A DNA stretch of 64,000 bases. It comes from an uncultured Dyadobacter sp. (GTDB lineage: Bacteria > Bacteroidota > Bacteroidia > Cytophagales > Spirosomataceae). The stretch covers positions 14,962-78,961 of the forward strand of contig CBFGMV010000026.1 in the NCBI GenBank assembly GCA_965649915.1, in the 5' to 3' direction. The notes under the pieces are model-generated. The model had not been told where the DNA came from. It saw nothing but the letters and a program-made list of their open reading frames with translations, and did not search any database. Shown one piece after another: positions 8,994 through 57,892 of this stretch. The position numbers were made by a program, and so were the translations under genes. The stretch's first letter is position 1. Every line of letters begins with the position of its first letter.

Positions 8994-10553
8994 GTGACCA
9001 TCCATACAAGGATATTGTGCTCTGTGTCTTTATCTTGCGGGGGAATCCTTTATGCAGCTGTGATACGCCTGATCAGAACCATTACGATCCTTTTTCTTGC
9101 CTTTTTTTTGCCACGAACGCTGTGGGCTCAGAAACGGGCGTCCCTGGCTGGATTGCAGGGCAATGCAGAAGCAGGTGCCTATGTATCTTCCAATGAAGAA
9201 ACGCCTTTCTGGTTCAGAACCAATCAGTTCGGGGCCGTACCCGACCATGCTGCGGCCGGAGTGATCCAGGCAACCGTTCGCAAGAATTATGTTTTTTACG
9301 ACAGCCTGAGTGGGAGATCCCGAAAATTCGACTGGAGCGCGGGCGTCAGCCCGGTCGGGACATACGACAAGACCGACCGTTTTCAATTCATTTTGCCTGA
9401 GGCGCATGCAAGTATCCGTTTCAAAAGAACGGAGTTGTATGTCGGGAGAAGAAAGGAGGTAATGGGGCTTGGAGATACGACATTGTCTTCCGGTTTTTAC
9501 GCCGTGTCGGGAAATTCACTGCCGATACCCAAGATTCAGATCGGCACCGTCGGGTTTACGCCTTTGAAGTTCACGGGGAATTTTCTGGCCGTTCACGCAG
9601 GGTTTGCGCATGGCTGGTTCAATACCGACTATATTCAGGGTGTGCGCCTGCATCAGAAATTCCTGTATTTCCGGTTAGGGAAAAATAAGAATAAGTTTTA
9701 TTTCGGTTTGAACCACAATGTAATGTGGGCAGGGCATGCCGACTACCTCAAAGATCATCCCGAACTGGCCGTCGACGGTGAATTGCCTTCTTCCTGGAAG
9801 TTCTACCCGAATGTGGTACTTGCATTTACTTCCAAAAACTGGTTTGACAAAAACGGGTACGGAGCATTTGACAGTTACCGGCTCGGCAACCATCTGGGCA
9901 GTTATGATTTTGCATTCGAAACAAAATGGAATGGGTACAAGCTCTTTGTTTATCATCAGCACCCGTTCGAGGATGTGTCGAGTATGCTGTTCAAAAATAT
10001 CCCCGACGGGCTGTACGGCGTCAACCTGAAATTGCAGCAGGGCAACCAATATCAGGGCTTTACACTCACCCATCTTACACTGGAATTCCTGACCACCAAA
10101 GACCAGTCGGGCTCGGAGTTCTACATCCCAGGCAGCAAATACCAGGGGGCAGACAATTATTTCAACCATACCCAATACCAGGAAGGGTGGTCGTACCAGG
10201 GCAAAACCGTGGGCACCCCGTTCATCATTCCGGGTAAGGATATGGATCCGGTCAAGCTCGGAGGCAACTACCGGTTTTTTCCCAACAACCGTGTGAATAT
10301 GTGGTATGCGGGAGCGCAAGGCCGCTTTAACTCATCGCTTCTGATGACGCTGAGGCTTTCTTACAGCACAAACTTCGGGACACCCGGTGCCGATTTCGAT
10401 CCGGCAAGAGGGCAATTCTCGTCGGTGCTGGGTGCACAGTACTTCCTGCCCCGTCAAAAGAAACTCAGCATTATCGCAAAGGTGGCAGCCGATCAGGGCG
10501 ACGTGTTCCGGGACAGGACCGGGGGGTACCTGGGCATCCGGAAGGAATGGTAA
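8994..10553 (+). CDS. Capsule assembly Wzi-family outer-membrane beta-barrel protein (start uncertain, possibly GTG near 9060)
   Basis: Signal peptide ending LWAQ. PFWFRTNQFG, SGNSLPIPKIQ, LHQKFLY, GNHLGS and DNYFNH..Y..GW.Y.G...GTP segments typical of Bacteroidota Wzi proteins; C-terminal aromatic W. Confidence 0.75.
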   Translation: MTIHTRILCSVSLSCGGILYAAVIRLIRTITILFLAFFLPRTLWAQKRASLAGLQGNAEAGAYVSSNEETPFWFRTNQFGAVPDHAAAGVIQATVRKNYVFYDSLSGRSRKFDWSAGVSPVGTYDKTDRFQFILPEAHASIRFKRTELYVGRRKEVMGLGDTTLSSGFYAVSGNSLPIPKIQIGTVGFTPLKFTGNFLAVHAGFAHGWFNTDYIQGVRLHQKFLYFRLGKNKNKFYFGLNHNVMWAGHADYLKDHPELAVDGELPSSWKFYPNVVLAFTSKNWFDKNGYGAFDSYRLGNHLGSYDFAFETKWNGYKLFVYHQHPFEDVSSMLFKNIPDGLYGVNLKLQQGNQYQGFTLTHLTLEFLTTKDQSGSEFYIPGSKYQGADNYFNHTQYQEGWSYQGKTVGTPFIIPGKDMDPVKLGGNYRFFPNNRVNMWYAGAQGRFNSSLLMTLRLSYSTNFGTPGADFDPARGQFSSVLGAQYFLPRQKKLSIIAKVAADQGDVFRDRTGGYLGIRKEW

Positions 10554-10583
10554 TGCGCAGGCAGGTAGTGATATCATGACGGT

Positions 10584-10690
10584 TGTCCAGCCGTGAACAG
10601 GATTGTTCATTTTCGGACGTTTTACATCCATTTCTCTTGTTTAAAAGGTTGATTATTAAACGATTGCTTTGCTTGGCATAACTTTATTGC
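10584..10690 (+). promoter_or_regulatory. Candidate sigma54-type promoter: paired palindromic activator sites + IHF-like site + -24 element
   Basis: TGTCCA-N4-TGAACA (10584-10599), TGTTCA-N4-CGGACG (10604-10619), WATCAANNNNTTR match on minus (10642-10654), TTGGCATAACTTTATTGC (10673-10690). The -12 GC is 2 nt off canonical spacing. Confidence 0.5.
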
Positions 10691-10767
10691 TGCAAGCGTA
10701 GGCAGTCATTGTCAGGGAGTTACCTTTTCTGACAATGGTTGTTTTAACCCTTTTCTGAACAAACAGG

Positions 10768-13167
10768 ATGCTGAAAAACTACCTTAAGGTTGCGCTTCGG
10801 AATATCTGGAAAAACAAGGTTTTTTCAGCGATCAATATTGTCGGCCTTGCCGTGAGCATGGCGGCCTGCATTGTGATCATGTTATTTGTTTTTTACGAGC
10901 GCAGTTTTGACAAGATCCATACCCGCAACATTTACCGGCTCGATGAGGTGCAGAAGTTCGAGGGCATGGTGGCACCCCAGAAAGTAGCGCTGTCCATGTT
11001 TCCGATGGGCCCGACATTGCGGGAGGAGTTTCCCGAGATCAGGCATTATGTTCGCATCAACACGGCCGGAAAGCTACCGATGAGTTACCGCGATCAGCGG
11101 ATAGAGCTCTCTCAGGTTTTCCTGACCGACTCGAATTTCTTCCAGCTTTTCGATTACAAACTGCTTGACGGTGATAAGGACAAGGTTTTGAAGGAGCCGA
11201 ACAGCGTGGTGCTTTCCAGGAAGAGCGCGGTGAACATATTCGGCAAGACGGATCCTATAGGTCAATACGTAAACCACTTCGGTAACGATACGCTGACCCT
11301 GAAAGTCACCGGCATCATGGACGATATTCCGGCTAATTCGCATTTGCAGTTTGACGCGCTGATTTCGTTCAACACCATCGCCAAGCCGGATTTTATGAAT
11401 AACTGGGGCGGTAACTGGCTCGTGACTTACCTGGAACTCGCCCCCGGGACGGATGTCGCGCGGTTGGAAAAGAAATTCCCTGCTTTCCTGAAAAAGCATA
11501 TGAAGGAGGGTGGCTGGAAGTTTTATGAACTGTTTTTGCAGCCGCTGGCGAACGTGCATGCACAGTCGGTGGACATTACCCACGATTATATCAACTATCA
11601 GAAGTTCGATAAAAGGTATACGTACATTTTTTCGGTGATTGCGGCCATTGTGCTCATTATCGCCTGTGTGAACTTCATGAACTTGTCTACCGCGCGTTCG
11701 ACCGGCAGGGCTAAGGAGGTGGGTATCAGGAAATCGATCGGTGCCCAGCGGTTCCAGCTTGCAGGGCAGTTTATCGGGGAGTCGGTGCTGCTGGCATTGT
11801 TCGCGTTGGTACTGGCGGTCGGTGTTGTGAAGCTCGTCATGCCTGCTGTGGCGGATTTTAGTCAGCGCCGGTTGGAATTTTCGATTTTTCAAAACCCGGG
11901 ACTCCTCCTGGTGATCCTGTTCGGCACAGTGTTGATCGGCATGTTTTCAGGGTTGTACCCAGCTGCATTTCTTTCGGGTTTTGAGCCGGTAAAAGTGCTG
12001 AAAGGCACGATACGGGCTGGAAAAAGCAACTTCCGGAATGCGCTGGTGATCGCCCAGTTTACCAGTGCGGTGTTCCTGATCATTGCCACCGGCTTTGCGG
12101 TAAAGCAGCTGCGTTATATGGTTAACAAAGACCCCGGTTTTGACAAAGAGCAGGTGGTGATCATTCCTTTGGATTCCAAGTCGGACACAAAGTTCGCAGC
12201 ATTGAAACAGGAGTTGCAGGCGAGTTCCTTCGTGGCGGCAGTAACTGGTTCGCAGCAGCGGCTCGGGAATAACCTGCACCAGACCGGCGTCACTTTTCAG
12301 GGGGCAGGCGCCAAGCGGCAGCTGACGTCGTCGCAGGTGATCGTGGATCCGGATTATCTGTCGCTTTACAAAATCAAACTGATCGCCGGCCGTAACTTCA
12401 CAAACAGCGCGTCCGACAATGCAAAAACCTACATTATCAATAAAGCGCTGGCGAAGGAGCTTCTGAAAGACGAACCGACGCTGACAATGGAAACGCTGAT
12501 CGGGAAACGATTTGGCTTTTCAGGCATGGATTCCCTGTCGACCATTGTAGGCATATCGGAAGACTTTAATTTCAATTCCCTGCATCATAAAATTGAGACC
12601 CTTTGCATTTTCAATCAGAAAGACTGGTCTTACTCCGAAATGTCGGTTCGGATCAAAGGGAAAAACACGCAGCAGGCGCTTGCGGCGATTCAGGCGGCCT
12701 GGAACAAGCTGGTGCCTGGCGAACCATTTAACTATTCATTCCTGGACGAACATTTCGCGGAGATGTACCGTGCCGATAGCCAGGTGAGTGAGATCGTAGG
12801 CGTACTGGCCGGTCTGGCCGTTTTTATATCCTGTCTCGGGCTGTTTGGCCTGGCTTCTTATTCCGCCGAGCGGAGGATCAAGGAGATCGGAGTGAGGAAA
12901 GTAATGGGTGCTTCGGTGGCTGGAATCGTGGCGCTGCTTTCCAGGGATTTTATCAGGCTGGTGATCATCGCGATACTCATTGCGTCGCCAGTTGCCTGGT
13001 GGGCTGTCCGGACCTGGCTGAACGATTTTGCTTACCGCATCGAGGTCGAATGGTGGATGTTCGCGGTGGCAGGTTTGCTGGCGATAGCGGTTGCTTTGTT
13101 CACGATCAGCTTCCAGAGTATCAAGGCTGCATTGACCAATCCTGTTAAAAGTTTGAGAGCCGAATAA
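10768..13167 (+). CDS. MacB/FtsX-type ABC permease, 799 aa
   Basis: MLKNYLKVALR start, ACVNFMNLSTARSTGRAKEVGIRK, NPVKSLRAE. Confidence 0.93.
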   Translation: MLKNYLKVALRNIWKNKVFSAINIVGLAVSMAACIVIMLFVFYERSFDKIHTRNIYRLDEVQKFEGMVAPQKVALSMFPMGPTLREEFPEIRHYVRINTAGKLPMSYRDQRIELSQVFLTDSNFFQLFDYKLLDGDKDKVLKEPNSVVLSRKSAVNIFGKTDPIGQYVNHFGNDTLTLKVTGIMDDIPANSHLQFDALISFNTIAKPDFMNNWGGNWLVTYLELAPGTDVARLEKKFPAFLKKHMKEGGWKFYELFLQPLANVHAQSVDITHDYINYQKFDKRYTYIFSVIAAIVLIIACVNFMNLSTARSTGRAKEVGIRKSIGAQRFQLAGQFIGESVLLALFALVLAVGVVKLVMPAVADFSQRRLEFSIFQNPGLLLVILFGTVLIGMFSGLYPAAFLSGFEPVKVLKGTIRAGKSNFRNALVIAQFTSAVFLIIATGFAVKQLRYMVNKDPGFDKEQVVIIPLDSKSDTKFAALKQELQASSFVAAVTGSQQRLGNNLHQTGVTFQGAGAKRQLTSSQVIVDPDYLSLYKIKLIAGRNFTNSASDNAKTYIINKALAKELLKDEPTLTMETLIGKRFGFSGMDSLSTIVGISEDFNFNSLHHKIETLCIFNQKDWSYSEMSVRIKGKNTQQALAAIQAAWNKLVPGEPFNYSFLDEHFAEMYRADSQVSEIVGVLAGLAVFISCLGLFGLASYSAERRIKEIGVRKVMGASVAGIVALLSRDFIRLVIIAILIASPVAWWAVRTWLNDFAYRIEVEWWMFAVAGLLAIAVALFTISFQSIKAALTNPVKSLRAE

Positions 13168-13177
13168 ATTCCAGACC

Positions 13178-15628
13178 ATGATCCAAAACTACTTTAAAAT
13201 TGCCCTGAGGAACCTGCAACGGCACAAGGGCTTTTCGCTGATTAATGTCTTAGGACTCACGATCGGGCTGACATGCTGTTTTCTGATCATGGTTTTTGTG
13301 CGGCATGAGCTGAGCTACGACACGTTCCACGCCAAACATGACCGCATTTACAGGCTGAATTACATGCCCAAGTTTGCGGGATACTCCATTTACATCGGAC
13401 TTACCCCAACGGTCGCATCGCCTCTGCTGCCCGACTACTTTTCCGAGGTCGAACGATCGGCGCGTGTTTACCGGAGCAATGCCACTATTGAGGTGCCGGG
13501 TACCAGCAGCCCCAGACCGGTTAAGTTTGACGAGGACCATTTTTTCTTCGCGGATTCGACATTGACTGATATTTTTTCGTTTGAATTCATTGAAGGAGAC
13601 CCGAAAACAGCATTGAAGCATGCCTATTCGCTGGTGATCAACGACCGCATCGCGCGCAAGTATTTCGGGAATGCGCCGGCGCTCGGCAAGACAGTTATTT
13701 ATGAAGGAACACATCCGATGAAGATAACCGGGGTTGTAAGGGAATTTCCGGACAACTCCCATATCCGGATCGATTTGTTGTCGGACTACAAGACGATGTT
13801 TGCCACCGAAAGCGAATTGGTCCGCAGAAACTTGCCCCAAAACTGGGTTATCACGCATTCGGCTACCTACGTGTTGCTACGGCCTGGAACAGACGCCCAA
13901 AGTGTGAACGCCCGGATGCCTCAATTTCTCAAAACGCATGCCGATGCGCAGATCGCGAAAGATATACAGTACCAGTTGCAGCCGTTGGGTGACATCCACC
14001 TGAATCCCGAAGTGGAGGGGAACCCTGAGCCGACGGGCAGCATGACGTACGTTTATGTATTTACCGGCATTGGTATTCTCACGTTGCTGATTGCCTGTAT
14101 CAACTTTATCAACCTTTCCACCGCCCGCTCGCTGCAACGCGCGCGGGAAGTGGGTATCAGAAAGACGCTGGGGAGTGAAAAAGGACAGATCGTTGCACAG
14201 TTCCTGGGCGAGTCGCTGCTGCTCAGCGGCATTGCATTGTTCTTTTCGGTTATACTCATCGCGGTGCTTTTCCCTGTGTTGAACATGCTGACCAACAAGC
14301 AGCTTACCTGGGTGTACCTGTTGCAAAATCCGGGACTACTCATTGCTTTTGTCTTGGTTGCTGTCATGGCGGGCCTTGTATCAGGCAGTTATCCCGCATT
14401 CTTTGTGGCTCGTTTTCAACCGATCGTGACGTTGAAAGGCAGCTTTGTGAGCGGTAAGGCAAGGGGAGGGAGCATCAGGCAGGCGTTGCTGGGTTTTCAG
14501 TTCATTGCTTCTATTGTATTGATTATCGGGGCTATGGTGGTGTTTCGGCAACTTCGGTTTTTAATGGAGCAGCCGGTTGGTTTCCATAAAGACTACATTA
14601 TTACAGCCGACATCCGGAATGAAAAGATCACCAATGTATTCGCTACACCCAGCGACAGTTCCTATCAGCGACTTAAAACCTTCCGGGAAACCTTATTGCA
14701 AAACCCGGCGGTGCAGGAAGTTACATTTGCTACCCAGCGCATGGCGGCGGGGGCCGTCCAACGGAATGTAGTTCCGGAGGGAAAAACGCAGGATGCCAAC
14801 CTCTTTGTAGGGGCGATCGGAATCGATTTTAATTTTGTGAAAACCTATGGCCTGAAACTGGCAGCGGGTCGAGACCTTTCTGAGCGCTATCCGACGGATA
14901 AGATTGCCGGCTTTCTCATCAACGAGACCGGCGTGAAGCAACTCGGGTGGAAGTCGGCGGCCGAAGCGTTGAACAAAGGCATTAATCTGGAAGGAAAGCA
15001 GGGGAGAATCGTCGGGGTGTTGAAGGATTTTCATACGCAGTCGCTACAAAATCCCATTCAAAGTGTGCTCTTCCACATAGATCAGAACCTTTTTACACAA
15101 ATGTCCGTGAAAGTGTCTCCAACGGCGCTCGATCAAACGCTGGCCTCGATGGGGCGCGAATGGGACAAGTTCTTTCCCGAAAAGGGCTTTGACTACCAGT
15201 TTCTGGACCAGAGCATTGCTGAGTCGTATGCTAATGAGCAACGGTTGAGTAAATTGGTTGGCTACTTCGCCGGTCTGGCCATCCTGATCTCCTGTCTTGG
15301 CCTTTATGGTTTGGTTTCGATCGCAACCCAGCAGCGAACGAAAGAGATTGGCATCCGGAAGGTGCTGGGTGCTTCGGTGCGAAGTATCGTGGAGCTCCTT
15401 TCCAAAGACTTCCTCATACTGGTCACCGTTTCGCTTCTGATCGCCAGTCCGATGGCCTGGTACGGCATGAACAAATGGTTGTCAAATTTTGCCTTTAAAA
15501 CCGATGTCGCCTGGTGGATTTTTGGCCTGGCAGGCTTGGTAACCCTCGGCATTACCCTGCTGACGGTTAGTTTTCAAAGTATCAGGGCAGCCTTGACAAA
15601 CCCGGTAAAGTCCCTGAAAACGGAGTAG
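13178..15628 (+). CDS. MacB/FtsX-type ABC permease, 816 aa
   Basis: MIQNYFKIALR start, ACINFINLSTARSLQRAREVGIRK, NPVKSLKTE. Confidence 0.93.
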   Translation: MIQNYFKIALRNLQRHKGFSLINVLGLTIGLTCCFLIMVFVRHELSYDTFHAKHDRIYRLNYMPKFAGYSIYIGLTPTVASPLLPDYFSEVERSARVYRSNATIEVPGTSSPRPVKFDEDHFFFADSTLTDIFSFEFIEGDPKTALKHAYSLVINDRIARKYFGNAPALGKTVIYEGTHPMKITGVVREFPDNSHIRIDLLSDYKTMFATESELVRRNLPQNWVITHSATYVLLRPGTDAQSVNARMPQFLKTHADAQIAKDIQYQLQPLGDIHLNPEVEGNPEPTGSMTYVYVFTGIGILTLLIACINFINLSTARSLQRAREVGIRKTLGSEKGQIVAQFLGESLLLSGIALFFSVILIAVLFPVLNMLTNKQLTWVYLLQNPGLLIAFVLVAVMAGLVSGSYPAFFVARFQPIVTLKGSFVSGKARGGSIRQALLGFQFIASIVLIIGAMVVFRQLRFLMEQPVGFHKDYIITADIRNEKITNVFATPSDSSYQRLKTFRETLLQNPAVQEVTFATQRMAAGAVQRNVVPEGKTQDANLFVGAIGIDFNFVKTYGLKLAAGRDLSERYPTDKIAGFLINETGVKQLGWKSAAEALNKGINLEGKQGRIVGVLKDFHTQSLQNPIQSVLFHIDQNLFTQMSVKVSPTALDQTLASMGREWDKFFPEKGFDYQFLDQSIAESYANEQRLSKLVGYFAGLAILISCLGLYGLVSIATQQRTKEIGIRKVLGASVRSIVELLSKDFLILVTVSLLIASPMAWYGMNKWLSNFAFKTDVAWWIFGLAGLVTLGITLLTVSFQSIRAALTNPVKSLKTE

Positions 15629-15677
15629 CGAATTTCTAAATGTTTGGTGTGAAAATGAATCGATAAACGCATAATCC

Positions 15678-15965
15678 ATGAGCCACATTGCTATCCCCAT
15701 CCCACCGCTTCAAGGTAAGCAGGAGATCAAAGTCGAAGTAACGATCAACGGAATCAAGCAGAACCTGTTCTATCGCGTAGAATTGTTTTACTGGGAGGAC
15801 TGCACGAATCCGGTGGCCCACAGGGCCGATTGCATTAGCGAAATGCTGTCGCATCACGACCCGGAGTGGACCGTATATTACATTGGCGCGCCCAATGATG
15901 AATTTGTGCCCATTACTTTCGTGAAGAAGGAAAGCAGAAGTTTGTTGCGCGAAGCTTTGGCATAG
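15678..15965 (+). CDS. Small hypothetical cytoplasmic protein, 95 aa
   Basis: ATG ORF after an A-rich leader, 49 nt downstream of the last permease; protein-like composition; no recognisable domain. Confidence 0.7.
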   Translation: MSHIAIPIPPLQGKQEIKVEVTINGIKQNLFYRVELFYWEDCTNPVAHRADCISEMLSHHDPEWTVYYIGAPNDEFVPITFVKKESRSLLREALA

Positions 15966-16012
15966 ACTATTTACGCAACAAGAAAGAGTTTTAATTCTTT
16001 TTTAATCTTTAT

Positions 16013-16069
16013 ATGCAACTATGTTGCATTTGTGGTCTATTCAAAACTACATTTGCATCATTGTTGCAT
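16013..16069 (+). promoter_or_regulatory. Sigma70-type promoter overlapped by two 7-3-7 inverted-repeat operators (candidate metal-responsive repressor sites)
   Basis: ATGCAAC-TAT-GTTGCAT (16013-16029, perfect) and TTGCATC-ATT-GTTGCAT (16053-16069) overlap TTG (16024-26)-N21-TACATTTG (16048-55). Confidence 0.65.
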
Positions 16070-16083
16070 ATAAAGATTTTTTT

Positions 16084-17292
16084 ATGAAAAAGCATTTATT
16101 CAAAGCGCTGCTGTTTGTAGCAGCGGGTTCACTGCTCACCGCTTGCGATGACGACAAAGAAAAGGGCGTTGATCCGGTGGAGGACACGGAGTACAAGTTT
16201 ATCAGAGTGATGGTGAGTGACGAGAGTTCTACGGAAATATCCCTGGTTGATCCGTCGAAGCGTTCGGTGGAGAAATTTGAGGCAAAGTATCCCAAATCTG
16301 CATTGTACGGTACCCAAGCCGGGCGTTTCGGTGCGATTGTGAATGGTGCCAATAATTTCGTGCAGCTGTTCGACATCGGTTTGGAAGGCCATGGCGACCA
16401 CGTAGATGTGAAGGGTACCCCGAAGTTTGGAGCACTGACCGGGGACGGAAACAAGCCGACGCATTTCAAAAGCAAAGGTGACGAGATCATCACTTTCAAT
16501 GATGGTGACGGTACTTTGAGTGTTGCCAAAGAAGGTGATTTTCATACGGCTGGTAAAAAAATGACCGTCATTAATGCAGGGAATGTGGCGCATCACGGTG
16601 CCATGACCAAGTTCGACAATGGTACTTACGCCATAACGGTGAAAGATGGGTCGGTGGCAGGTTCACTGCCCGAACGTGTCAAGATCATCGACGGTTCCGG
16701 TAAAACACTTTTTGCTTCCACAGTTCAAACCAAAGGAGTTCATGGCAATGCTACGAATGGAAGTATTTCGCTGTTCGGATCGGCCAGCGGTATCCTGGCC
16801 GTGGGGCCGGATGGTAACCAGAGACTGATCGCGCATCCGGCAGACTTCGGCGACGCATGGTTCGGCTCGATCCTGGAAGCAAAGGGTGCGGGCAAATTCC
16901 TGGGTTATACCGCAGCGAAGGGCGTTTACCTGATCGACGTAGCCAGCAATGCGGTTACCCCAATCCTCGCACACACGGACATCATGCAGGCGAAAGTCGA
17001 TTATGCAGGGAATAACCTTGTGGTATTGCTGCACAGTGGCGAGCTACGTGTATTCGACCTGAAAACCAATGCTGTGAAAGCTACGGGGAATGTGCTGCCG
17101 GCCACCGCAAAGGATGAAACCCAAAAGCCGCAGCTGGAAGCGACTTCGCGCTACATTTACATTACCCAGCCTAAAACCGGGGAATTACTGGTGGTCAACG
17201 CCAAAGACCTATCCAAAACAAATAAGGTGAATGTATCTGCTGCACCTTACCGGCTGAGCATTCTGGGATTTGAATCGAGTGAAGGACATTGA
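16084..17292 (+). CDS. Lipoprotein, AztD-like zinc-binding beta-propeller, 402 aa
   Basis: Lipobox LLTA-C followed by acidic DDDKE. His motifs GHGDH, KPTHF, AHHG, GVHG and C-terminal EGH resemble the AztD metal-ligand pattern (recognised by eye). Confidence 0.65.
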   Translation: MKKHLFKALLFVAAGSLLTACDDDKEKGVDPVEDTEYKFIRVMVSDESSTEISLVDPSKRSVEKFEAKYPKSALYGTQAGRFGAIVNGANNFVQLFDIGLEGHGDHVDVKGTPKFGALTGDGNKPTHFKSKGDEIITFNDGDGTLSVAKEGDFHTAGKKMTVINAGNVAHHGAMTKFDNGTYAITVKDGSVAGSLPERVKIIDGSGKTLFASTVQTKGVHGNATNGSISLFGSASGILAVGPDGNQRLIAHPADFGDAWFGSILEAKGAGKFLGYTAAKGVYLIDVASNAVTPILAHTDIMQAKVDYAGNNLVVLLHSGELRVFDLKTNAVKATGNVLPATAKDETQKPQLEATSRYIYITQPKTGELLVVNAKDLSKTNKVNVSAAPYRLSILGFESSEGH

Positions 17293-36524: not shown

Positions 36525-36567
36525 GTGTACGAGCCCGGCCGGTGTTTTAGAGTGCGTGTTCGAACAC
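36525..36567. promoter_or_regulatory. Candidate LacI operators
   Basis: Perfect 12-bp palindrome GTGTTCGAACAC (36556-36567) with central CG, and degenerate GTGTACGAGCCC (36525-36536), in the region divergent from lacI. Confidence 0.6.
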
Positions 36568-36616
36568 TTTTTTAAATTTTGCTAGGAAAAACCAATTTGG
36601 CAAGTAATTTTGTAAA

Positions 36617-36742
36617 TAAGATAAGAAAGAAAATTTTATTCTTTAATACTCCTAACCTTTAACCTTTTCAGGAATTCATTTATTGAAATTCCTCTAATCC
36701 TAAACCTGCAAAGCGCGCGAACATCGTTTCGTGCGCTTTTTT
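36617..36742 (+). ncRNA. Candidate small RNA (5' end uncertain, ~36497 or ~36617)
   Basis: Two + strand Bacteroidota-type promoters, no ATG ORF, internal hairpin AGGAATT/AATTCCT, and a terminator whose U6 tail is on the + strand. Confidence 0.4.
36710..36742 (+). terminator. Intrinsic terminator, stronger on +
   Basis: AAAGCGCGCGAA-CATCGT-TTCGTGCGCTTT with T6 on + and only T3 on -. Confidence 0.75.
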
Positions 36743-50084: not shown

Positions 50085-50759
50085 CTAGTTCCGGAAGAAG
50101 TACCGCAGGCCCAGGGAGACGCTTGGAAGGGTGATCGTCGGCGACAATTTGTAATTGAAAACGTTGTAATCACTTTCGAAACCGGTATCCAGGTTTTCAC
50201 TTTTGCTCGTGGTATATCCTACCGAAAACAGATCCGCGAACCCGAGCGAGCCGGTAAGCCACCAGCGTTCGTTCAAAGTGTAATACGCCCCGGCCGAAAC
50301 GCCGAAAGGCAAAGTGAACGTATGGGCCCGCCGCTCGGTAACGCCATTGGATGTGTCGTAGGTTTTGGCATAAACATAGGTTACGTCGATACCAGGACCG
50401 CCAAACACCCCGAATTTGTCGTTAAAGTGCTTGTAGTACTGCCAGAAATAGCCTGCACTTGCTCCGAATTGTTTTATGCCGCTATCCCTTTCCCTGTTGC
50501 TGTTCGTATAAACGTCTGACTTACCCCCGCCCAGCGAGGTTCCCAGGTTCCATCCCCGGGCCATGTTCTGCGTTTTGAACTTACCGAAACTCGCATTGAA
50601 GTTATACCCGTAATCATTGCTCGATGCAGCCCGCTCGGGATTATTGTTTGAGAAATTGATGCCGGCAGTGGCGGATACAAATCGTTTGCCTTCATATTGT
50701 GCAAATGCTGCAGTGATCGAACATGCAACAAGAAGCCATGTAAATAACGTCTTTTTCAT
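50085..50759 (-). CDS. Outer-membrane beta-barrel protein (OmpA-like, ~8 strands), 224 aa
   Basis: Signal peptide ending AFAQ; alternating aromatic strands; C-terminal GLRYFF. Confidence 0.75.
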   Translation of the reverse strand: MKKTLFTWLLVACSITAAFAQYEGKRFVSATAGINFSNNNPERAASSNDYGYNFNASFGKFKTQNMARGWNLGTSLGGGKSDVYTNSNRERDSGIKQFGASAGYFWQYYKHFNDKFGVFGGPGIDVTYVYAKTYDTSNGVTERRAHTFTLPFGVSAGAYYTLNERWWLTGSLGFADLFSVGYTTSKSENLDTGFESDYNVFNYKLSPTITLPSVSLGLRYFFRN

Positions 50760-50766
50760 TTTCGAT

Positions 50767-51429
50767 TCAGTTTGATTTTGTGAGATACCATGAAGCCCTG
50801 ATGCTGAAATACTGCTGGATATTGGACGTGACGCCAGCAGAGAACCCGAAAGAGTTAGAGCTCGGGAAGTTGGAATACAGCAGGTTGAACGATAATACAT
50901 TTACGTCCGCTTCCAGCGCAAAGCGGGGCGTGACCCGGTAAACAATGCCGGGCAGGATATAAGCACCCGCAGCAAAGCCGTCGTCATGGTCTTTTTCACC
51001 GTTAGCGCTCTTACTTGCGCTCCTGATATAAGAGAAGTTCAGTCCTGGTTGCAGGAATAGGGCCCATTTGGGGTTGAGCGATTTGTACCGCCGGATAAAC
51101 GGGGAGAGCGTGAAGCTCATGTAGTTGTCATTCGCTTCGTAGTCGGAGTTGGTATCTTCCCGACTTCTTTTATTGAAATTGAAGTACGGACTGAAACGTA
51201 AGCCCAACATGGTATTGTCCCTGGTGAACTTCCCGAACTGAATGGCGGGACTCAGACTATGGTCGTTGAATTTGGCAGTCCCATAGTCATCACCTGCTTT
51301 ATGGGTTTGCAATGACCCTCCGAGACTGATCGTGGCGCCCCAGTGCTTTGTCCCCTTCTCAAATTGCGCTTCCGCTTTTCCTGCCAGCAAAAGCATTCCC
51401 GGCAGTAACAATAGAAAGTGTTTTTTCAT
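50767..51429 (-). CDS. Outer-membrane beta-barrel protein, 220 aa
   Basis: Signal peptide ending AEAQ; QFEKG..GATI, FIRRY, GIVY..TPRFALE, C-terminal ASWYL. Confidence 0.75.
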   Translation of the reverse strand: MKKHFLLLLPGMLLLAGKAEAQFEKGTKHWGATISLGGSLQTHKAGDDYGTAKFNDHSLSPAIQFGKFTRDNTMLGLRFSPYFNFNKRSREDTNSDYEANDNYMSFTLSPFIRRYKSLNPKWALFLQPGLNFSYIRSASKSANGEKDHDDGFAAGAYILPGIVYRVTPRFALEADVNVLSFNLLYSNFPSSNSFGFSAGVTSNIQQYFSIRASWYLTKSN

Positions 51430-51502
51430 GGTATATAAATTAATTTGTAGAAGCAATTTACATACGATTATGTAACCGCCTAATTATTTATATTTATTTA
51501 AC

Positions 51503-51536
51503 AAAAAAGAAGCAGCCAATGCGCCTGGCTGCTTCT
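51503..51536 (-). terminator. Terminator of the ATPase-TolC operon
   Basis: AGAAGCAGCCA / TGGCTGCTTCT 11-bp stem with an A6 run on +. Confidence 0.8.
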
Positions 51537-51583
51537 AAGTATTACCGATACCAAATTTAACCTAACAATCTTTAATGATTTAT

Positions 51584-51669
51584 GCTATAAGCTTTAAGCT
51601 CTAGGCTATAAGCAATCTTGTTTCTTTCCATTCCCGCCAGCTTACAGCTTATGGCCTATAGCTTAAAGC
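51584..51669. repeat. Two inverted arrays of degenerate heptamer repeats (GCTNTAR x4 each)
   Basis: GCTATAA GCTTTAA GCTCTAG GCTATAA GC, a 26-nt spacer, then GCTTACA GCTTATG GCCTATA GCTTAAA GC. Confidence 0.75.
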
Positions 51670-51672
51670 CCC

Positions 51673-52983
51673 CTAAAACACCCCCTGCCAATTGCCCTGG
51701 CGGTAGTATTGTAACAGCCTTTGCTGCATGAGGTAATCATATCTTGCCTGAATGGCAATGCCTTGTGCCTGGGCGAGTTTGGCTTTGGAAAGCGTGTATT
51801 CGAATATACTTGCTACCCCTGCATTGAACTTGCTTTCAACCACAGCGAACGCTGCCGCCAGCGATTCCACCTGACCTTCCGCGGCTGCGTGTTTGTCGGC
51901 CAGGGCGTTCAGGTTCAGCACGGCTGCTTCGATGGATTGCCGTAACTGCTGATTGGCGATGTCCAGCGTATTTTGTGCCTGACGTTCCTGCACTTTGGCC
52001 AGTTCGACACGCGGCCGGGTTACCCAGCGGCCCATGATCGGGATGTTCAGGCCGAGGTTAATATAACCACCACGGGTTGAATTCAGCTGCTTGAAGTAAT
52101 CGAAGTTATTGTTTGTCGAATAGAATGCCCGCACATTGGTGTTCAGGCTCAGAGACGGATAATTCAATGCCTTAATAGACTTGACGAGGTATTTGTAGCT
52201 CTGGCGGTTCAGTTCGGCGCTACGGATTTCTGGAAAATTCTTTACGGCATTTTCGTACAACTCGGTCGAATTGGCCACGGTGGGCACCACATTTTCCTTA
52301 GGTAGCAGCGGCTCGAACTCTACATTGTCGTCGGGTGTGATATTGATCCGCTGGAACAACGCGAGACGTGCCGTGCGGTAATTGCTGAGTGCCGTTACCT
52401 GCAGGAATTTGTCGTTGGCAAGCTGGGCTTTGATTTCTGCGAAAAGATTATTTCCCGCTGTCCCTGCATTCACCTGTTTCTGCACCTTATCCACTTGTTG
52501 TTGTGATGACGCGACCTGCTCGTCTGCGGCTTCGAGCAATGCTTTCGTCGCCAGTACATTCACGTAACCTTGCATGAGCAGGACAGTCTGGGCGTTCAGC
52601 ACCGCCGTCCGGTTTTCCATGGCCGACTCTTTAAGCAGGGTGCCCTGGCGGGTTTGGTTTTGCAGCTTTCCTCCCTGGTAAACCGGCATCTGAAACCCGG
52701 TCTGAAGCGAATTATAGCTGTAAAGCTGGTCAATATACGTATTGGTGTACTGGTCGATACTACGGCCGAGATTCAAACTTTGGTCGGCTGTGATATAGAT
52801 CTGCGGGAGGATCTGGGATTTGGTCTGCCGCAACTGGGCCTGAGCAGCTTCGGCTTGCAGGCTTCCCTGCTGATAGAGCAGGTTGTTTTTTGCCAACAGA
52901 TCAACGCATTCGGCGAGACTGAGTTTGGCCTGTCCCTGCCCCAGAAGCGGCAAAAGGCAAAGAAGTAAAATTAAACGTTTCAT
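51673..52983 (-). CDS. TolC-family outer membrane efflux protein, 436 aa
   Basis: Signal peptide; LSL.ECV..LAKNN, QMPVYQG, KFNAG.AS.FE...K, ARYDY; two helical repeats. Confidence 0.9.
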   Translation of the reverse strand: MKRLILLLCLLPLLGQGQAKLSLAECVDLLAKNNLLYQQGSLQAEAAQAQLRQTKSQILPQIYITADQSLNLGRSIDQYTNTYIDQLYSYNSLQTGFQMPVYQGGKLQNQTRQGTLLKESAMENRTAVLNAQTVLLMQGYVNVLATKALLEAADEQVASSQQQVDKVQKQVNAGTAGNNLFAEIKAQLANDKFLQVTALSNYRTARLALFQRINITPDDNVEFEPLLPKENVVPTVANSTELYENAVKNFPEIRSAELNRQSYKYLVKSIKALNYPSLSLNTNVRAFYSTNNNFDYFKQLNSTRGGYINLGLNIPIMGRWVTRPRVELAKVQERQAQNTLDIANQQLRQSIEAAVLNLNALADKHAAAEGQVESLAAAFAVVESKFNAGVASIFEYTLSKAKLAQAQGIAIQARYDYLMQQRLLQYYRQGNWQGVF

Positions 52984-53002
52984 GGCTAATAGATGAGTTA
53001 GG

Positions 53003-53665
53003 TTATGCCAGCCAGCCGTCCTTCAAGCGTACGATTCGGTTACCATATCCTGCATTGGTTTCCGAATGAGTGACCTGCACGATTGTGACTTTGTCTTCCT
53101 GGTTGAGTTTTTGAAATAATTCCATGATTTCGATCGCCTGTTCCGAATGGAGGTTTCCCGTCGGTTCATCGGCAAAAATGACTTTTGGGTTGTGTACGAT
53201 CGCACGGGCTACGCCCACGAGCTGCTGCTGTCCACCGGAAAGCTGGTGGGGAAAAAGATCCTTTTTTGCCACCATATTGAAGCGGTCGAGTAACTCCGCT
53301 ACACGGCTTTTGCGTTCAGACGATCCGGTGCCTTTGTATAAAAGCGGTGTTTCGATGTTTTCATATACAGTCAGCTCATCGATCAGGTGATAAGCCTGGA
53401 ATACAAAACCGATGTGGTGACGGTGCAATTCGGTACGCTTTTTCTCGGACAATTTCTGAACCGGTTCATCCAGAAAGAGGTATTCGCCTTCCGATGGTTC
53501 TTCCAGCAAACCGAGGATATGTAACAGGGTGGATTTGCCTGATCCGGAGGGGCCCATGATCGAAATAAATTCACCTTCCTTGATATTCAGATCAATGTGA
53601 CGCAAAACGTATGTCTTGCCAAAACCCGCGGGATAATACTTTGATATTTTTTCTAACTGGATCAT
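53003..53665 (-). CDS. ABC transporter ATP-binding protein (MacB/LolD-type), ~220 aa
   Basis: Walker A GPSGSGKST, GFVFQ, LSGGQQQ, ADEPTGNL, VTH. Confidence 0.95.
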   Translation of the reverse strand: MIQLEKISKYYPAGFGKTYVLRHIDLNIKEGEFISIMGPSGSGKSTLLHILGLLEEPSEGEYLFLDEPVQKLSEKKRTELHRHHIGFVFQAYHLIDELTVYENIETPLLYKGTGSSERKSRVAELLDRFNMVAKKDLFPHQLSGGQQQLVGVARAIVHNPKVIFADEPTGNLHSEQAIEIMELFQKLNQEDKVTIVQVTHSETNAGYGNRIVRLKDGWLA

Positions 53666-53733
53666 AAAGAATATTGGGTTTGAGATTTGCGGCCTAATTA
53701 CGGACAACCCGCTTGAAAATCAAATGCTGACCG

Positions 53734-53862
53734 GCATCTCGTATGCCAAACCTGGTTTAAAAAGGCTTGCCAAAATTGTAAAGCATTGATTATCATATCA
53801 TATTGAATAGGTTTTCAAATGATTACGTCCGATAGCGCACACATTTTGTACGCTATCGGACG
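53734..53862 (-). promoter_or_regulatory. Sigma54-type promoter with IHF-like site and paired upstream activator palindromes
   Basis: On minus: TTTGGCATACGAGATGC (GG-N10-GC, 53750-53734) and AATCAATGCTTTA (53791-53779). Palindromic sites CGTCCG-N4-CGCACA (53826-41) and TGTACG-N4-CGGACG (53847-62). Confidence 0.7.
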
Positions 53863-53895: not shown

Positions 53896-56304
53896 CTATT
53901 CTGAGCGGAGTGCCAGCACGGGATCGATGGCGGCAGCCCGCAGCCCCTGCATGAATACCGTGACCATTGCGATCACGATCGAAGCGCCGCCCGACACCGC
54001 GGATATCCACCACGCCACACCGGCGTGATAGGCGAAATTTTCGAGCCATTTCTGCATCAGGTAATGTCCGGCAGGCAAAGCAATGAGTATGGAGATTGCT
54101 ATGATTTTGATAAATGTCCTGGAAAAAAGGAGAGCGATTTCCGGGCCCGAAGCACCGAGCGCAATGCGGATCCCTGTCTCCCGACGTCGTTGCGCTACGG
54201 CCAGGTGTGCCAGTCCGAACAACCCCAGGCCGCATATGATTATGGCGATCACCGTCACCAGCGTGATCATATGCTGCCATCGCTGTTCCATTGCGTAGGC
54301 CCGGGCATTGCTGTCGCTCAGAAAAGCGTAGTTGAAAACTGCATTGGGAAGAAGCTTTTTAAATGTTGCTTCCAGTTTTTGAATGGTTTGCTGCTGGTCT
54401 TTTTGAGCGATTTTGATCCATAAAGCACCTCCATCGTAATGCGTGCTCATCGGCATCACCATGGGGCCGATCCGCTCCTTTAATGAGCTGTAATGGAAAT
54501 CGTCGACCACACCAACGATGGTAAAACCCTCTTTGCCAAAATAGGAGTCCGGGAAAAGGGTGGCGCCGACCGGATTCTTCAAACCTGCCTTTTTAACAAA
54601 TGCTTCATTTACCAAAACGCCCGATTTGCTATCAGACCCAAACTGCGATGAAAAATTCCGGCCGGAACTAAATTTCATTTCCAACATAGGCGCATACAAA
54701 GCATCAATGGTGCGCATGAAACTCATGAATTTCCGACCATTGATTTCGACATCCCGGTTCCCAAATTCACCCGCCAGTGAAATGGCCCGGATCGCCGGTT
54801 CGTAGGCAAGCTCATGCCTGAACCGCGCCGTAATATGCTGTACATTACGCACACCCTGGATATCGATTTTTACGACCTGATCGGGGTTGTAACCCAGACT
54901 TTTGGAACGGATGAAATGCATTTGCCTGTAAAAAACCAGGCTGGCGGTACCCAGCAGGATAGCTGTTGCAAACTGGACGATCATCAGGATCTTGCCGACC
55001 GGGTTCCGTGAGGATATGCTTATTTTCTGATACAACGTAGCCACGGGAGTCAGCCTGGAAAGCAGCCAGGCGGGATAAAAAGCCGCGCAGAGCATGTTAA
55101 TGAGGAAAATTCCCGCAAGCCATGCTAGTAACACCGGCGTAAAAAGCAGGGAGCTGGGTATCTCTTTTTGAGCTAATTGATTGAAAGCGGGAAGCAGGGA
55201 CCAGGCGATGAGGATAGCGAGCAGCATAGCCGCAGCCACAACAATGGCAGATTCACCCATAAACTGAGCGATGATCCCGGCGCGCCCTCCTCCCGTCGCT
55301 TTCCGTATGCCCACCTCCTTCGCCCGTTTCACGGACGAAGCGATCGTCAGGTTGATAAAGTTAGTGCTTGCCATCAGCAGGATAAAGGAAGCAATGCCGA
55401 GAAAAATGTAGGAATACACGGAACGGCTCCCATTGACAATACCCGATTCACCGTTCTGGTTGGCTATTTCCTGGGGATTAAAGTGAATGTCGGTCATGCT
55501 TTGTAACCCATAAGTAATGGGGGAGGCCTCCGGGTTTTCTTTGCGTTGCGTTTGTGAAAGGGAAAACGCGATGCGGTTGAGTTTAATAATGATTTCGTCC
55601 GGTCGGGCATCAGGGCGAAGCACCAGAAAGGTTCCGAGATAGGCATTCAGCCAGCTCGTATCGTCAAATGAAACCTTCATGAATTCGAAGGGAAATAATA
55701 TGTCAAACTGGATGGACGAATGGGATGGAGGATCTTCCGCCACACCAGCGATGACTAATGGCTTGCCGATGCGCATAGCGGAGGGATCTGCATCCATTTC
55801 CAGGATTTCGCCTGTGACGTCCGTGCGGCCGAAGAATTTAAGCGCTGTTTTCCGCGTAATTATTACCGAATTGACGTTTTGCAAAGCGGTTCGGGGATTG
55901 CCTTCCACCAGCGGGAATGTGAAAACATCCAGAAAGGAGCTATCGACGAACAGCAATTGCAGCTTGAATGCATTATGCCCGTGACGCACGTCCCCGAAAA
56001 TTTCCCCGCCCATTACGCGTGTATAATGCATGATCCCCGGTACCTGCGCCTGAAATGCAGGGCCTTGCACTTGTCCGGTGCCGCCGGTGGTCACCATCTG
56101 GCCATGGTCCCGGTAGGTGCTGGTGATGCGATACAGGTTCGGGTTGTTTTGGTGAAAATGGTCAAAACGCTGTTCGTCGGTGATATATAGGGCTGCAAAA
56201 AGGACGCAGCAGGTACCGGTGGTCAGCCCGGTAATATTAATAAGGGCGTACAGCCTCGTTTGCCAGAGCTGACGTCCGGCAACTTTCAGAAAAGTTTTAA
56301 ACAT
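53896..56304 (-). CDS. MacB/FtsX-type ABC permease, 802 aa (divergent)
   Basis: MFKTFLKVAGR, NFINL..KRAKEVGIRK, QRRRETGIRIALGAS, DPVLALRSE. Confidence 0.9.
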   Translation of the reverse strand: MFKTFLKVAGRQLWQTRLYALINITGLTTGTCCVLFAALYITDEQRFDHFHQNNPNLYRITSTYRDHGQMVTTGGTGQVQGPAFQAQVPGIMHYTRVMGGEIFGDVRHGHNAFKLQLLFVDSSFLDVFTFPLVEGNPRTALQNVNSVIITRKTALKFFGRTDVTGEILEMDADPSAMRIGKPLVIAGVAEDPPSHSSIQFDILFPFEFMKVSFDDTSWLNAYLGTFLVLRPDARPDEIIIKLNRIAFSLSQTQRKENPEASPITYGLQSMTDIHFNPQEIANQNGESGIVNGSRSVYSYIFLGIASFILLMASTNFINLTIASSVKRAKEVGIRKATGGGRAGIIAQFMGESAIVVAAAMLLAILIAWSLLPAFNQLAQKEIPSSLLFTPVLLAWLAGIFLINMLCAAFYPAWLLSRLTPVATLYQKISISSRNPVGKILMIVQFATAILLGTASLVFYRQMHFIRSKSLGYNPDQVVKIDIQGVRNVQHITARFRHELAYEPAIRAISLAGEFGNRDVEINGRKFMSFMRTIDALYAPMLEMKFSSGRNFSSQFGSDSKSGVLVNEAFVKKAGLKNPVGATLFPDSYFGKEGFTIVGVVDDFHYSSLKERIGPMVMPMSTHYDGGALWIKIAQKDQQQTIQKLEATFKKLLPNAVFNYAFLSDSNARAYAMEQRWQHMITLVTVIAIIICGLGLFGLAHLAVAQRRRETGIRIALGASGPEIALLFSRTFIKIIAISILIALPAGHYLMQKWLENFAYHAGVAWWISAVSGGASIVIAMVTVFMQGLRAAAIDPVLALRSE

Positions 56305-56310
56305 GTTTTC

Positions 56311-57198
56311 TCAGGAATGGACTTCCATTTTGTAGCCAACACCGTGGATGGCGGAGATTTTGATCAGCGGATCGGGGACCAGCATTTTGCGGAGGCGGGA
56401 AACAAACACATCGACGCTGCGACCTACCGTAACACCCTCATCCTCCCATACTGATTTGAGGATCGTATCCCTTTCCAGAACCTGGTTGGTGTTTCGGGCG
56501 AATAGCGCCAGCAATTTGGTTTCGCGGTAAGTCAGCGCCTGCATGGCCGTTCCTGTGTGGAGGGTCTGGTTAGTAATATCGAGCCACGAACCGCCGAAGG
56601 TGAGTCGGGGAGTAGGCCCGGATACGGCCTGCGCGATCGGTTGATGCGTTTTCTTATTCCTTGACCGGCTCCATACGATAAAACCGAGCCCGGCGGCAGT
56701 GACCCCCAACGACAAGAAGATCCAATTGCTTCCGGCGGATTTTGGGACTGTCGTTTCGGGTGTAAAGCGCACCTGCAGGATATAGCAGCCGTCCTCATGA
56801 GCGCGGCTGCGGCAGGGGACACCTCCCGGCTGCGTGAGGTCCATCAGCTGATAGCCTAATACGACCTCGCTGTTTTCACAACGGGTCACCATGACGTTGT
56901 AGGAAAGCTTCACACGGTGCATTTGCAACGACTCCTGCAAGGTTTCTGGCAGCTTATCATAGTCGAACATATGCTGCATTTGCACCGAAAACGTATGCGC
57001 ATCGGTTTGTTTCACAGGGGGGATCTGAGACAGCGAATCGCCGTTGGCAATCAGAAGTCGGTGAGCCGTCCGGCGGAGGGCGAGGTTAACATGCTCCGAG
57101 AAGCGGACGGCATCGTTGTTGGCCATAGCAATGATGCCGGGGCCCAGCAGCAGGCCCCACAAACCCATTAATGCCAGAACTAGATTTGAATTGCGCAT
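56311..57198 (-). CDS. Membrane-anchored one-component regulator: periplasmic domain + TM + C-terminal OmpR/PhoB winged helix, ~295 aa
   Basis: N-terminal hydrophobic segment, three Cys, TM WIFLSLGVTAAGLGFIVW, then LTYRE..LL..F..N.NQVLER..I...VW..GRSVDVFVSRLRK.L..I..I.GVGYK; no receiver domain. Confidence 0.85.
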   Translation of the reverse strand: MRNSNLVLALMGLWGLLLGPGIIAMANNDAVRFSEHVNLALRRTAHRLLIANGDSLSQIPPVKQTDAHTFSVQMQHMFDYDKLPETLQESLQMHRVKLSYNVMVTRCENSEVVLGYQLMDLTQPGGVPCRSRAHEDGCYILQVRFTPETTVPKSAGSNWIFLSLGVTAAGLGFIVWSRSRNKKTHQPIAQAVSGPTPRLTFGGSWLDITNQTLHTGTAMQALTYRETKLLALFARNTNQVLERDTILKSVWEDEGVTVGRSVDVFVSRLRKMLVPDPLIKISAIHGVGYKMEVHS

Positions 57199-57233
57199 AG
57201 CAGAGAGAATGCTTCTATCAAATTTACGGAATT

Positions 57234-57695
57234 TCAGCAATTGTCCTTTTTACCAATCCACCCATTGAGCCAATTAAATTGCGGAACGACCTGGGTGTTA
57301 TTCACAATAATAGTTCGCCTCGCGGTCTTGTCGTTCTGATTGGCCGGGTCTATAATGAGTTCGTCGCCTGCGCGGGCGGATTTGAGTACTTCCGCTATAT
57401 CATAATGCGACACCGCATAATTGTGCGCATAAGCCTGGGCGTCCACGATCTTGCCATCCCTCCTCAGGTAGATGTAAAAAGGGATAACCTGTCCTTTATC
57501 GGACGACTTGCTGTTCACGGAAAGTGAAATAACGCCACGGCTCACACCCGAGAGTTGCCTGGTATCGATTGTTTTTCCATTCAGCAACAAGGCAATGCTT
57601 CGCACGGAATCGTCGGCTTTGGGCAGTGCGACCGACGCGTGCAATGCGCAAAGCAGGACCACAGCCGGAATAATTTGCAGGAATTTGTTTTGCAT
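57234..57695 (-). CDS. Hypothetical secreted protein, ~153 aa
   Basis: Signal-like N-terminus (MQNKFLQIIPAVVLLCALHA); co-oriented, 35 nt upstream of the regulator. Confidence 0.7.
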   Translation of the reverse strand: MQNKFLQIIPAVVLLCALHASVALPKADDSVRSIALLLNGKTIDTRQLSGVSRGVISLSVNSKSSDKGQVIPFYIYLRRDGKIVDAQAYAHNYAVSHYDIAEVLKSARAGDELIIDPANQNDKTARRTIIVNNTQVVPQFNWLNGWIGKKDNC

Positions 57696-57770
57696 AATTT
57701 TTGATCGTCTAAGGATGAAGTTACCAATGGTCAAAATTACCGGTCGCATAACGGGGCTGGTCATTATGCC

Positions 57771-57801
57771 TGTAAAACATTGTAAACGAATTGTAAAACA
57801 T
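57771..57801. promoter_or_regulatory. Three direct repeats TGTAAA at 10-11 bp spacing (OmpR-type binding array)
   Basis: TGTAAAACAT TGTAAACGAAT TGTAAAACAT. Confidence 0.6.
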
Positions 57802-57892
57802 TAGATCCGGCGTTGGTAAGGGTAGTAAATGGCGGCCGGAGAGGATTTCGCATTAATTTTCGGTTAAAGCAGAACATTATGGCCGATTCCGG

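Follow-up and report, generated by a model that had tools for sequence, protein, structure and literature searches.

Two distant promoter regions of a Dyadobacter genome as probable copies of one cassette found ahead of MacB/ADOP-type efflux pump genes in Bacteroidota

Can one regulator switch on efflux pump operons that lie 43 kb apart? The question is raised by a 64,000-nucleotide stretch of DNA (the window) from Dyadobacter (Spirosomataceae, Cytophagales), in which the pump parts of this particular bacterium are dispersed over one ATPase-TolC operon and many operons of 800-aa permeases. Two regions of the window, site 1 (10584-10690, plus strand) and site 2 (53862-53733, minus strand), resemble each other, and the original prediction was that the same enhancer-binding activator co-regulates distant permease genes and the ATPase-TolC operon. 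We compared both sites with related loci and with shuffled sequences. The results suggest that the two sites are probably copies of one promoter cassette, which would define a Bacteroidota-wide regulon of MacB/ADOP-type tripartite efflux pumps.

Pfam identifies 11 genes with MacB_PCD and FtsX domains in the window; 10 of these encode permeases of a duplicated type of about 800 aa (two are cut by the window ends), and the remaining one encodes a 408-aa single-module protein. The only ABC ATPase gene precedes a TolC-like gene and two genes for OMP beta-barrels. The operon downstream of site 1 (10768..15628, plus strand) consists of two MacB/ADOP-like duplicated permeases, 10768..13167 and 13178..15628, each containing MacB_PCD and FtsX twice. 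The operon downstream of site 2 (50085..53665, minus strand) includes the ATPase gene (53003..53665, with the true ATG at 53665), the TolC-like OMF gene (51673..52983) and the two beta-barrel genes. Several Dyadobacter genomes encode an ATPase with 99% identity to this one, and the gene order after the cassette is the same in the Dyadobacter loci L002-L008. Several neighboring genes are of other kinds. A gene for a Wzi-like (capsule assembly) outer-membrane protein (8994-10553, plus strand) sits amid the permease genes. After the site 1 permeases, a 95-aa ORF lies within 15629-16020, ahead of a gene (16021-17292, plus strand) for a 423-aa protein resembling the beta-propeller of the zinc metallochaperone AztD (9e-29, under the cut-off). 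Upstream of site 2 is a further permease gene (53896..56304, minus strand), and directly upstream of the latter is a gene (56311-57240, minus strand) for a protein of 309 aa that has an OmpR/PhoB-type winged-helix domain at its C-terminus and lacks a receiver domain; the head of its operon (57765-57892) carries no cassette.

Site 1 begins with two palindromes, the candidate activator dyads. The distal one, TGTCCAGCCGTGAACA / TGTCCAgccgTGAACA (10584..10599, plus strand), matches TGTCCG-N4-CGGACA at 9 of 12 positions, and the proximal one, TGTTCATTTTCGGACG / TGTTCAttttCGGACG (10604..10619, plus strand), is located 20 bp further, start to start. They are followed by an IHF-consensus match, AATCAACCTTTTA (10642-10654, minus strand), the position of which is kept across cassettes and which is part of a dyad-like putative bending element (10642..10659; plus-strand part TTGATTATTAA, 10649-10659). 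The last component is a -24/-12-type promoter, TGGCATAACTTTATTGC (10674..10690, plus strand), with its TGG 54 nt after the proximal dyad. Checking of the sequence thus recovered the palindromes, their 20-bp spacing, the IHF match and the TTGGCAT of the original prediction, each in its place. The prediction had also called the -12 element atypical, and at 10674-10690 the GC indeed comes 2 nt later than in TGGCAC-N5-TTGC.

For site 1, orthologs were taken from metagenome loci encoding the closest permease relatives (69-87% identity), in which the synteny Wzi-like gene, cassette, permease is retained. The orthologous promoter sequence reads TGGCATAA-TTTG-TTGC, and the proximal dyad is perfect, TGTCCGAATTCGGACA, in the orthologous promoters of L082, L140 and L141. 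The late TTGC is retained in L082, L083, L140, L141 and L144, with TTGA in L084; the late position is thus kept in six of the seven orthologous promoters, which argues that this feature of site 1 is not private decay. The more distant paralogs of the site 1 permeases are internal operon genes, and the cassette is absent there. In many of the metagenome paralogs in L095-L154 (e.g., L115, L143 and L152), the gaps between consecutive permease genes are filled by runs of short direct repeats, such as AATGACCAATGAC or CAATGAACTAATGAAC, often preceded by the opposite-strand version GTCATTGGTCATT; no such repeats of internal permease gaps were found in the window. The 5'-UTR of site 1 contains a 9-bp inverted repeat, CATTGTCAG...CTGACAATG (10706-10737), within about 40 nt that are missing from the closest orthologs (L082, L140 and L141), and the E. 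coli-type promoter matches of our scan sit inside this repeat.

The original prediction placed the same order of elements at 53734-53862. The same elements are present there, with the dyads 21 bp apart rather than 20. The distal dyad, CGTCCGATAGCGTACA / CGTCCGatagCGTACA (53847..53862, minus strand), matches at 10 of 12 positions and is kept in L002-L013; the proximal dyad is TGTGCGCTATCGGACG / TGTGCGctatCGGACG (53826..53841, minus strand). The IHF-consensus sequence match, AATCAATGCTTTA (53791-53779, minus strand), again belongs to a dyad element (53779..53795; part TGATAATCA, 53787-53795, minus strand); direct reading of the loci shows an IHF-consensus match in the corresponding position of L002-L006 and, in L007, on the opposite strand. 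At the conserved distance, 53 nt, from the proximal dyad lies a -24/-12-type element, TGGCAAGCCTTTTTAAA (53756..53772, minus strand), with a degenerate -12 (TTTA). The TTGGCAT that the original prediction probably meant for site 2 exists at 53748 and belongs to a second candidate element, TGGCATACGAGATGCC (53733..53748, minus strand), with canonical GG-GC spacing; the element at the conserved distance is TGGCAAG at 53772, 21 bp upstream. The TGGCAAG element is retained in all Dyadobacter loci, L002-L008. The second element is found in L002-L005 and, minus its GC, in L006; the D. frigoris-type loci L007 and L008 do not have it. Because a second TGGCAT with proper spacing stands 21 bp downstream of the first element, the true -24 of site 2 appears ambiguous between the two, and an offset of 21 bp would preserve helical phase. 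Among the 80 fetched loci encoding relatives of the ATPase, the arrangement of two dyads, an AT-rich spacer and TGGCA upstream of the ATPase gene was found in Dyadobacter, Persicitalea, Telluribacter, Runella, Emticicia, Spirosoma and Siphonobacter.

A motif that is defined post hoc from two sites invites the objection that their resemblance is due to chance or to local duplication without function. One component of the original description indeed proved coincidental: ATCATGAC, said to precede both sites, is present at 10573-10580 and 53870-53863, yet it is not part of the cassette, because it occurs three times in the window versus 2.4 expected and is absent from every orthologous promoter. 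The dyads behave differently. The pattern YGTNCR-N4-YGNACR occurs in the 64 kb only as the four dyads of sites 1 and 2, with 0.74 expected. Our strict model (tandem dyads, followed after 50-57 nt by TGG[CT]A, with the expectation taken from shuffles) gives two matches in the window versus 0.01 in shuffles, and 58 versus 0.05 in the 1.57 Mb of window plus loci. Moreover, the cassette persists in orthologous places where protein identity has fallen to 59-75%, and it is shared between phyla. Judging by these counts, an explanation by chance or functionless duplication is effectively refuted and retains next to no probability.

The cassette is also specific in its location. A loose model yielded 56 matches in the first 945 kb, of which 52 lie on the gene strand directly upstream of pump genes. 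The genes behind these cassettes are ATPase-TolC, 800-aa permeases, HlyD-ATPase or an ECF-sigma-HlyD operon. The lineages with the cassette include Dyadobacter, Persicitalea, Runella, Emticicia, Spirosoma, Larkinella and Siphonobacter among Cytophagales, and Chitinophaga, Saprospiraceae, Haliscomenobacter, Lewinellaceae and Pedobacter beyond this order; in Ignavibacteria-type loci, the spacer behind the same dyads is longer. In Siphonobacter sp. BAB-5385 (L159:132-837, plus strand), a cassette stands before an ECF sigma factor gene that is followed by HlyD-ATPase-permeases, so the regulon of this strain may include a second-tier sigma factor. The window protein h176 (57234..57764) was considered as a relative of this cassette-linked ECF sigma, and the comparison shows that they are unrelated. 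Two further motif occurrences in the window were inspected. The dyad TGTCCTTTATCGGACG at 57490-57578 (plus strand), with TGGTAT 54 nt downstream, points toward an MFS gene at 57893; we rejected it as a probable chance match because it has no distal dyad, its spacer is GC-rich rather than AT-rich, and it lies inside a 176-aa ORF on the opposite strand. The loose model leads us to expect 0.57 matches of this kind per window. At 36526-36620 (plus strand), TGTACGAGCCCGGCCG and a GTGTTCGAACAC palindrome are followed 31 nt later by TTTGGCAAGTAATTTTG; these elements lie between two minus-strand genes, have the wrong spacing for a cassette and are without a downstream plus-strand gene.

Taken over all cassettes, the dyad consensus is TGTCCG-nTAn-CGGACA, present twice with starts 20-22 bp apart. 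Of 70 loose-model cassettes, 62 have a distal dyad at this distance upstream of the proximal one, and in 49 the distal dyad reaches a score of 9 of 12 or more, versus 0.4% of controls. Positions of the dyad that the model leaves free are still conserved (T1 in 84%, G6 in 92% and C11 in 80%). This pattern bears on the possibility that the palindromes are mainly RNA hairpins, which terminate or stabilize the upstream transcripts, i.e., those of the Wzi-like gene and of permease 53896..56304. The site 2 palindrome, which lies 34 nt after the stop codon of that permease, folds at -30.5 kcal/mol (z = -6.4), as expected of such a hairpin. Conversely, at site 1 the hairpin does not stand out from shuffles (z = -0.96), Spirosoma versions keep the dyad sequence and lose the long hairpin, and what is conserved is base identity (TGTCCG/CGGACA) around a variable N4, not pairing. 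Furthermore, no intrinsic terminator, that is, a GC-rich hairpin with a T-run, was found in either region, and the strong site 2 hairpin has no T-run. A primary role as RNA hairpins is thus very improbable; the site 2 hairpin could still, as a secondary terminator, influence read-through out of the permease gene ahead of it. In arrangement, the two helically phased dyads of each site fit the upstream activating sequences of bEBPs, which consist of two or more dyad-symmetric sites about 80-150 bp upstream of the start.

The spacer and promoter are equally regular. In 49 of 52 cassettes, TGG follows the end of the proximal dyad after 52-55 nt (54 at site 1 and 53 at site 2). The spacer contains a dyad-like element with the consensus YAA-N4-TTGATwATCA-N4-TTR, the center of which lies about 19 bp upstream of TGG. 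The E. coli IHF consensus, searched as WATCAANNNNTTR between enhancer and promoter, is matched on either strand in 29 of 58 spacers at fixed positions, versus 0.6 in shuffles; the matches in the window are those at 10642-10654 and 53779-53791 (both minus strand), each between enhancer and promoter. The promoter consensus is TGGCACG-N3-TTTGA. With TGG[CT]A required by the model, C occupies position 4 of the -24 element in 85% of cassettes, and the model-free positions +11 to +13 from the T of TGG are T in 92%, T in 75% and G in 71%. The GG within a TGGCAC-like -24 is present in the window as TGGCAT at 10674 and, on the minus strand, as TGGCAA at 53772 and TGGCAT at 53748.

The -12 element is the part that speaks against reading these sites as sigma-54 promoters. 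A TTGC-like -12 with GC exactly 10 bp after GG was found neither at site 1 nor in the 53772 element, so neither conserved Dyadobacter promoter element has a canonical -12; in the window, only the non-conserved second element of site 2, TGGCATACGAGATGCC, has a TTGC-like -12 at the right spacing. These poor -12 elements would fit an alternative in which the dyads are operators of some other dimeric regulator, a repressor or the winged-helix protein 56311..57240 encoded in the neighboring operon, transcription starts at a sigmaA-type promoter, and TGGCA is incidental; a near-match, TAACTTTA, overlaps the site 1 element. Against this alternative, TGGCA keeps a fixed distance from the dyad in nearly all cassettes, and most lineages, unlike Dyadobacter, have a good TTGA, TTGG or TTGC at the right -12 spacing. 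OmpR-type domains usually bind direct repeats, which also disfavors the winged-helix protein. A transcription start at a sigma70-type TAnnTTTG element had been named as the observation that would count against the original prediction: neither region contains a perfect Bacteroidetes TAnnTTTG box, a one-mismatch form is likewise missing at site 2, and site 1 has two relaxed matches. Queries of sequencing runs with stretches of the two sites listed no RNA run. Finally, the gene conserved beside the cassette encodes a sigma-54 activator, not a repressor. Given the missing perfect TAnnTTTG box, the fixed geometry and this linked gene for an enhancer-binding protein, control by an operator and a sigmaA-type promoter is unlikely, and enhancer-dependent activation remains the reading that we follow.

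If one enhancer-binding protein co-regulates dispersed pump operons, a gene for such an activator is predicted to lie beside the dyads in some genomes. At least nine loci have a gene for an NtrC-type response regulator beside the dyad-bearing region, in divergent orientation. The divergent genes, with the domain order REC-Sigma54_activat-HTH_8, are those of L041 (Chitinophaga jiangningensis), L058, L059, L060, L063, L064, L074, L081 and L170 (Cytophagales bacterium LB-30), and the lineages represented are Chitinophaga, Saprospiraceae-type, Lewinellaceae, Ignavibacteria-type and other Cytophagales. The dyad region opposite the activator gene heads an operon HlyD-ATPase-(ATPase)-permease/TolC, and a histidine kinase gene is located behind the activator gene in most of the nine linked loci. 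In L170, there is a second, internal cassette before a later permease, as at site 1. The same gene order exists in L169 (Cecembia rubra), with a loose match to one dyad only. A tblastn search for the central domain of NtrC led to the activators; the locus-linked genes include L041:2330-3793, L169:5237-6625 and L170:5353-6753 (minus strand) and those of L058-L061, L063, L064, L074 and L081.

The linked activators are 51-59% identical to the L041 protein and share an almost invariant C-terminal helix-turn-helix, ELGL[ST]RA[SA]LYRRLEKY. The family is marked by GAFTDA and ELGLTRASLYRRLEKY. In every locus-linked activator, GAFTDA or GSFTDA replaces GAFTGA in the sigma-54-contact loop. Among the best 120 database relatives (P0121-P0240), 117 have GAFTDA or GSFTDA, one has GAYTDA, and two gave no match. 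A GAFTGA regular expression run over the ORFs of all loci had no match, a false negative explained by this replacement. NCBIfam gives no equivalog name for the linked activators, and the public names of the best 120 close relatives are generic. Among the window proteins, Pfam detected no sigma-54 interaction domain, and tblastn with the NtrC central domain found no activator gene in the 64-kb window or in the Dyadobacter loci L002-L008. In Spirosomataceae loci, no activator was found within 6 kb of the ATPase except a 63-aa fragment in L035. Searches for a Dyadobacter activator via HlyD orthologs and with a profile of two Cytophagales activators reached none, and returned only Siphonobacter, Cyclobacteriaceae, Fulvivirga and similar lineages. 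We consider it likely, from gene adjacency in the other lineages, that the divergent NtrC-type regulator and its histidine kinase constitute the activating system of the cassette. Together with the conserved cassettes, these divergent genes lend comparative support to the proposal of one enhancer-binding activator for distant permease and ATPase-TolC operons.

What the sequences show directly is the elements of the cassette, their geometry and conservation, the pump genes that they accompany and, in other lineages, an activator gene next to them; from these, we infer activator binding, use of sigma-54 at both Dyadobacter promoters, IHF-like bending and an inducing signal. In the mechanism that we propose, the kinase would phosphorylate an NtrC-family regulator (REC, a sigma-54 AAA+ domain with the GAFTDA loop, and a Fis-type HTH). 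Dimers of the regulator would occupy the two TGTCCG-N4-CGGACA dyads, two helical turns apart, and then oligomerize. An IHF/HU-like protein would bend the AT-rich spacer at the dyad-like WATCAA-N4-TTR, about 19 bp upstream of TGG, so that the AAA+ ring could contact and remodel the closed sigma-54 holoenzyme at TGGCA (-24) and the T-rich -12, at a distance of 53-54 nt from the proximal dyad. The ATPase-TolC operon shares this cassette with a permease operon 43 kb from it, so the common engine would be switched on along with at least one permease operon.

A more far-reaching reading, which we put forward tentatively and with considerable doubt, is that the cassette may define a phylum-specific variant of sigma-54 activation, in which one two-component system switches a modular pump. 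It would account for the co-occurrence, in Bacteroidota and Ignavibacteria-type loci, of the GAFTDA/GSFTDA loop, a TTGA or T-rich -12 and a dyad-symmetric IHF-like site; the symmetry of the latter suggests a homodimeric, sequence-specific bending protein. In such a pump, one ATPase-TolC engine would serve many interchangeable 800-aa permeases. Independently of the variant machinery, Cytophagales, Chitinophagales and related soil bacteria encode dozens of paralogous 800-aa MacB/ADOP-like permeases, and with the cassette and the candidate two-component activator in hand, the whole regulon should be predictable from sequence. The candidate kinase offers a handle for seeking the inducing signal, and the cassette offers a way to ask whether a single ATPase-TolC unit serves many permeases. 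In addition, the cassettes provide a large natural set of Bacteroidota sigma-54-type promoters with a non-canonical -12, as well as a conserved IHF-like site, of a kind that has received little study in this phylum.

Parts of this picture have precedents. A PSSM survey published in 2025 reported an enrichment of sigma-54-type promoters ahead of COG0577 permeases for Bacteroidia, Opitutia and gamma-Proteobacteria, and called this the first link of sigma-54 to the FtsX-like permease transporter family (PMC12316311). The accessible portion of that survey describes no activator, upstream activating sequence or IHF element, and does not address Cytophagales/Dyadobacter or co-regulated dispersed ATPase-TolC and permease operons. 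In Flavobacterium psychrophilum, -24/-12 sigma-54 promoters have been experimentally mapped (motif SM4), which indicates that Bacteroidota use such promoters and that these depend on enhancer-binding activators; the regulon includes chaperones, gliding motility and envelope proteins (PMC9723704), and the part of the article that we could consult names neither a MacB-type pump cassette nor TGTCCG dyads. Our literature search uncovered no account of the TGTCCG dyad, nor of the cassette-linked two-component system. The conservation of the cassette ahead of MacB-type pump genes in Bacteroidota points to a real regulon, apparently undescribed and classical in kind.

As for the pumps, the regulated permeases resemble ADOP and DarB/DarD-type exporters of the MacB family in being duplicated MacB_PCD+FtsX proteins of about 800 aa. 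In NCBIfam, these permeases match ADOP at 1.8e-94 and DarB at 2e-35, and the ATPase matches DarD at 1.1e-70. All these scores are under the curated cut-offs, and hence the window proteins are to be regarded as relatives rather than members of these families.

The closest parallels of the cassette are the NtrC enhancer at glnAp2 and the UAS-IHF-nifH arrangement of NifA, the classical architecture of bEBP/sigma-54 systems. As in these systems, tandem dyads would lie about 80-110 bp upstream of the start, with an IHF-type site in between and GG at -24. The candidate activator, a response regulator with a histidine kinase as partner, shares the REC-AAA+-Fis-HTH build of NtrC, and the cassette dyad has the TGT-N10-ACA outline of the NifA UAS. 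The linked activators nevertheless score 339 bits against the NifA profile (cut-off 529), have REC instead of GAF and occur in an efflux rather than a nif context. Further differences from these systems are the recognition sequence, TGTCCG-N4-CGGACA, the MacB/ADOP-type efflux pump targets in another phylum, the GAFTDA/GSFTDA loop instead of GAFTGA, a regulon -12 consensus of TTGA rather than TTGC, and the dyad symmetry of the bending site. Thus, the architecture is that of textbook NtrC and NifA-IHF-sigma-54 systems, and what appears to be new here is the regulon and the specificity of its activator.
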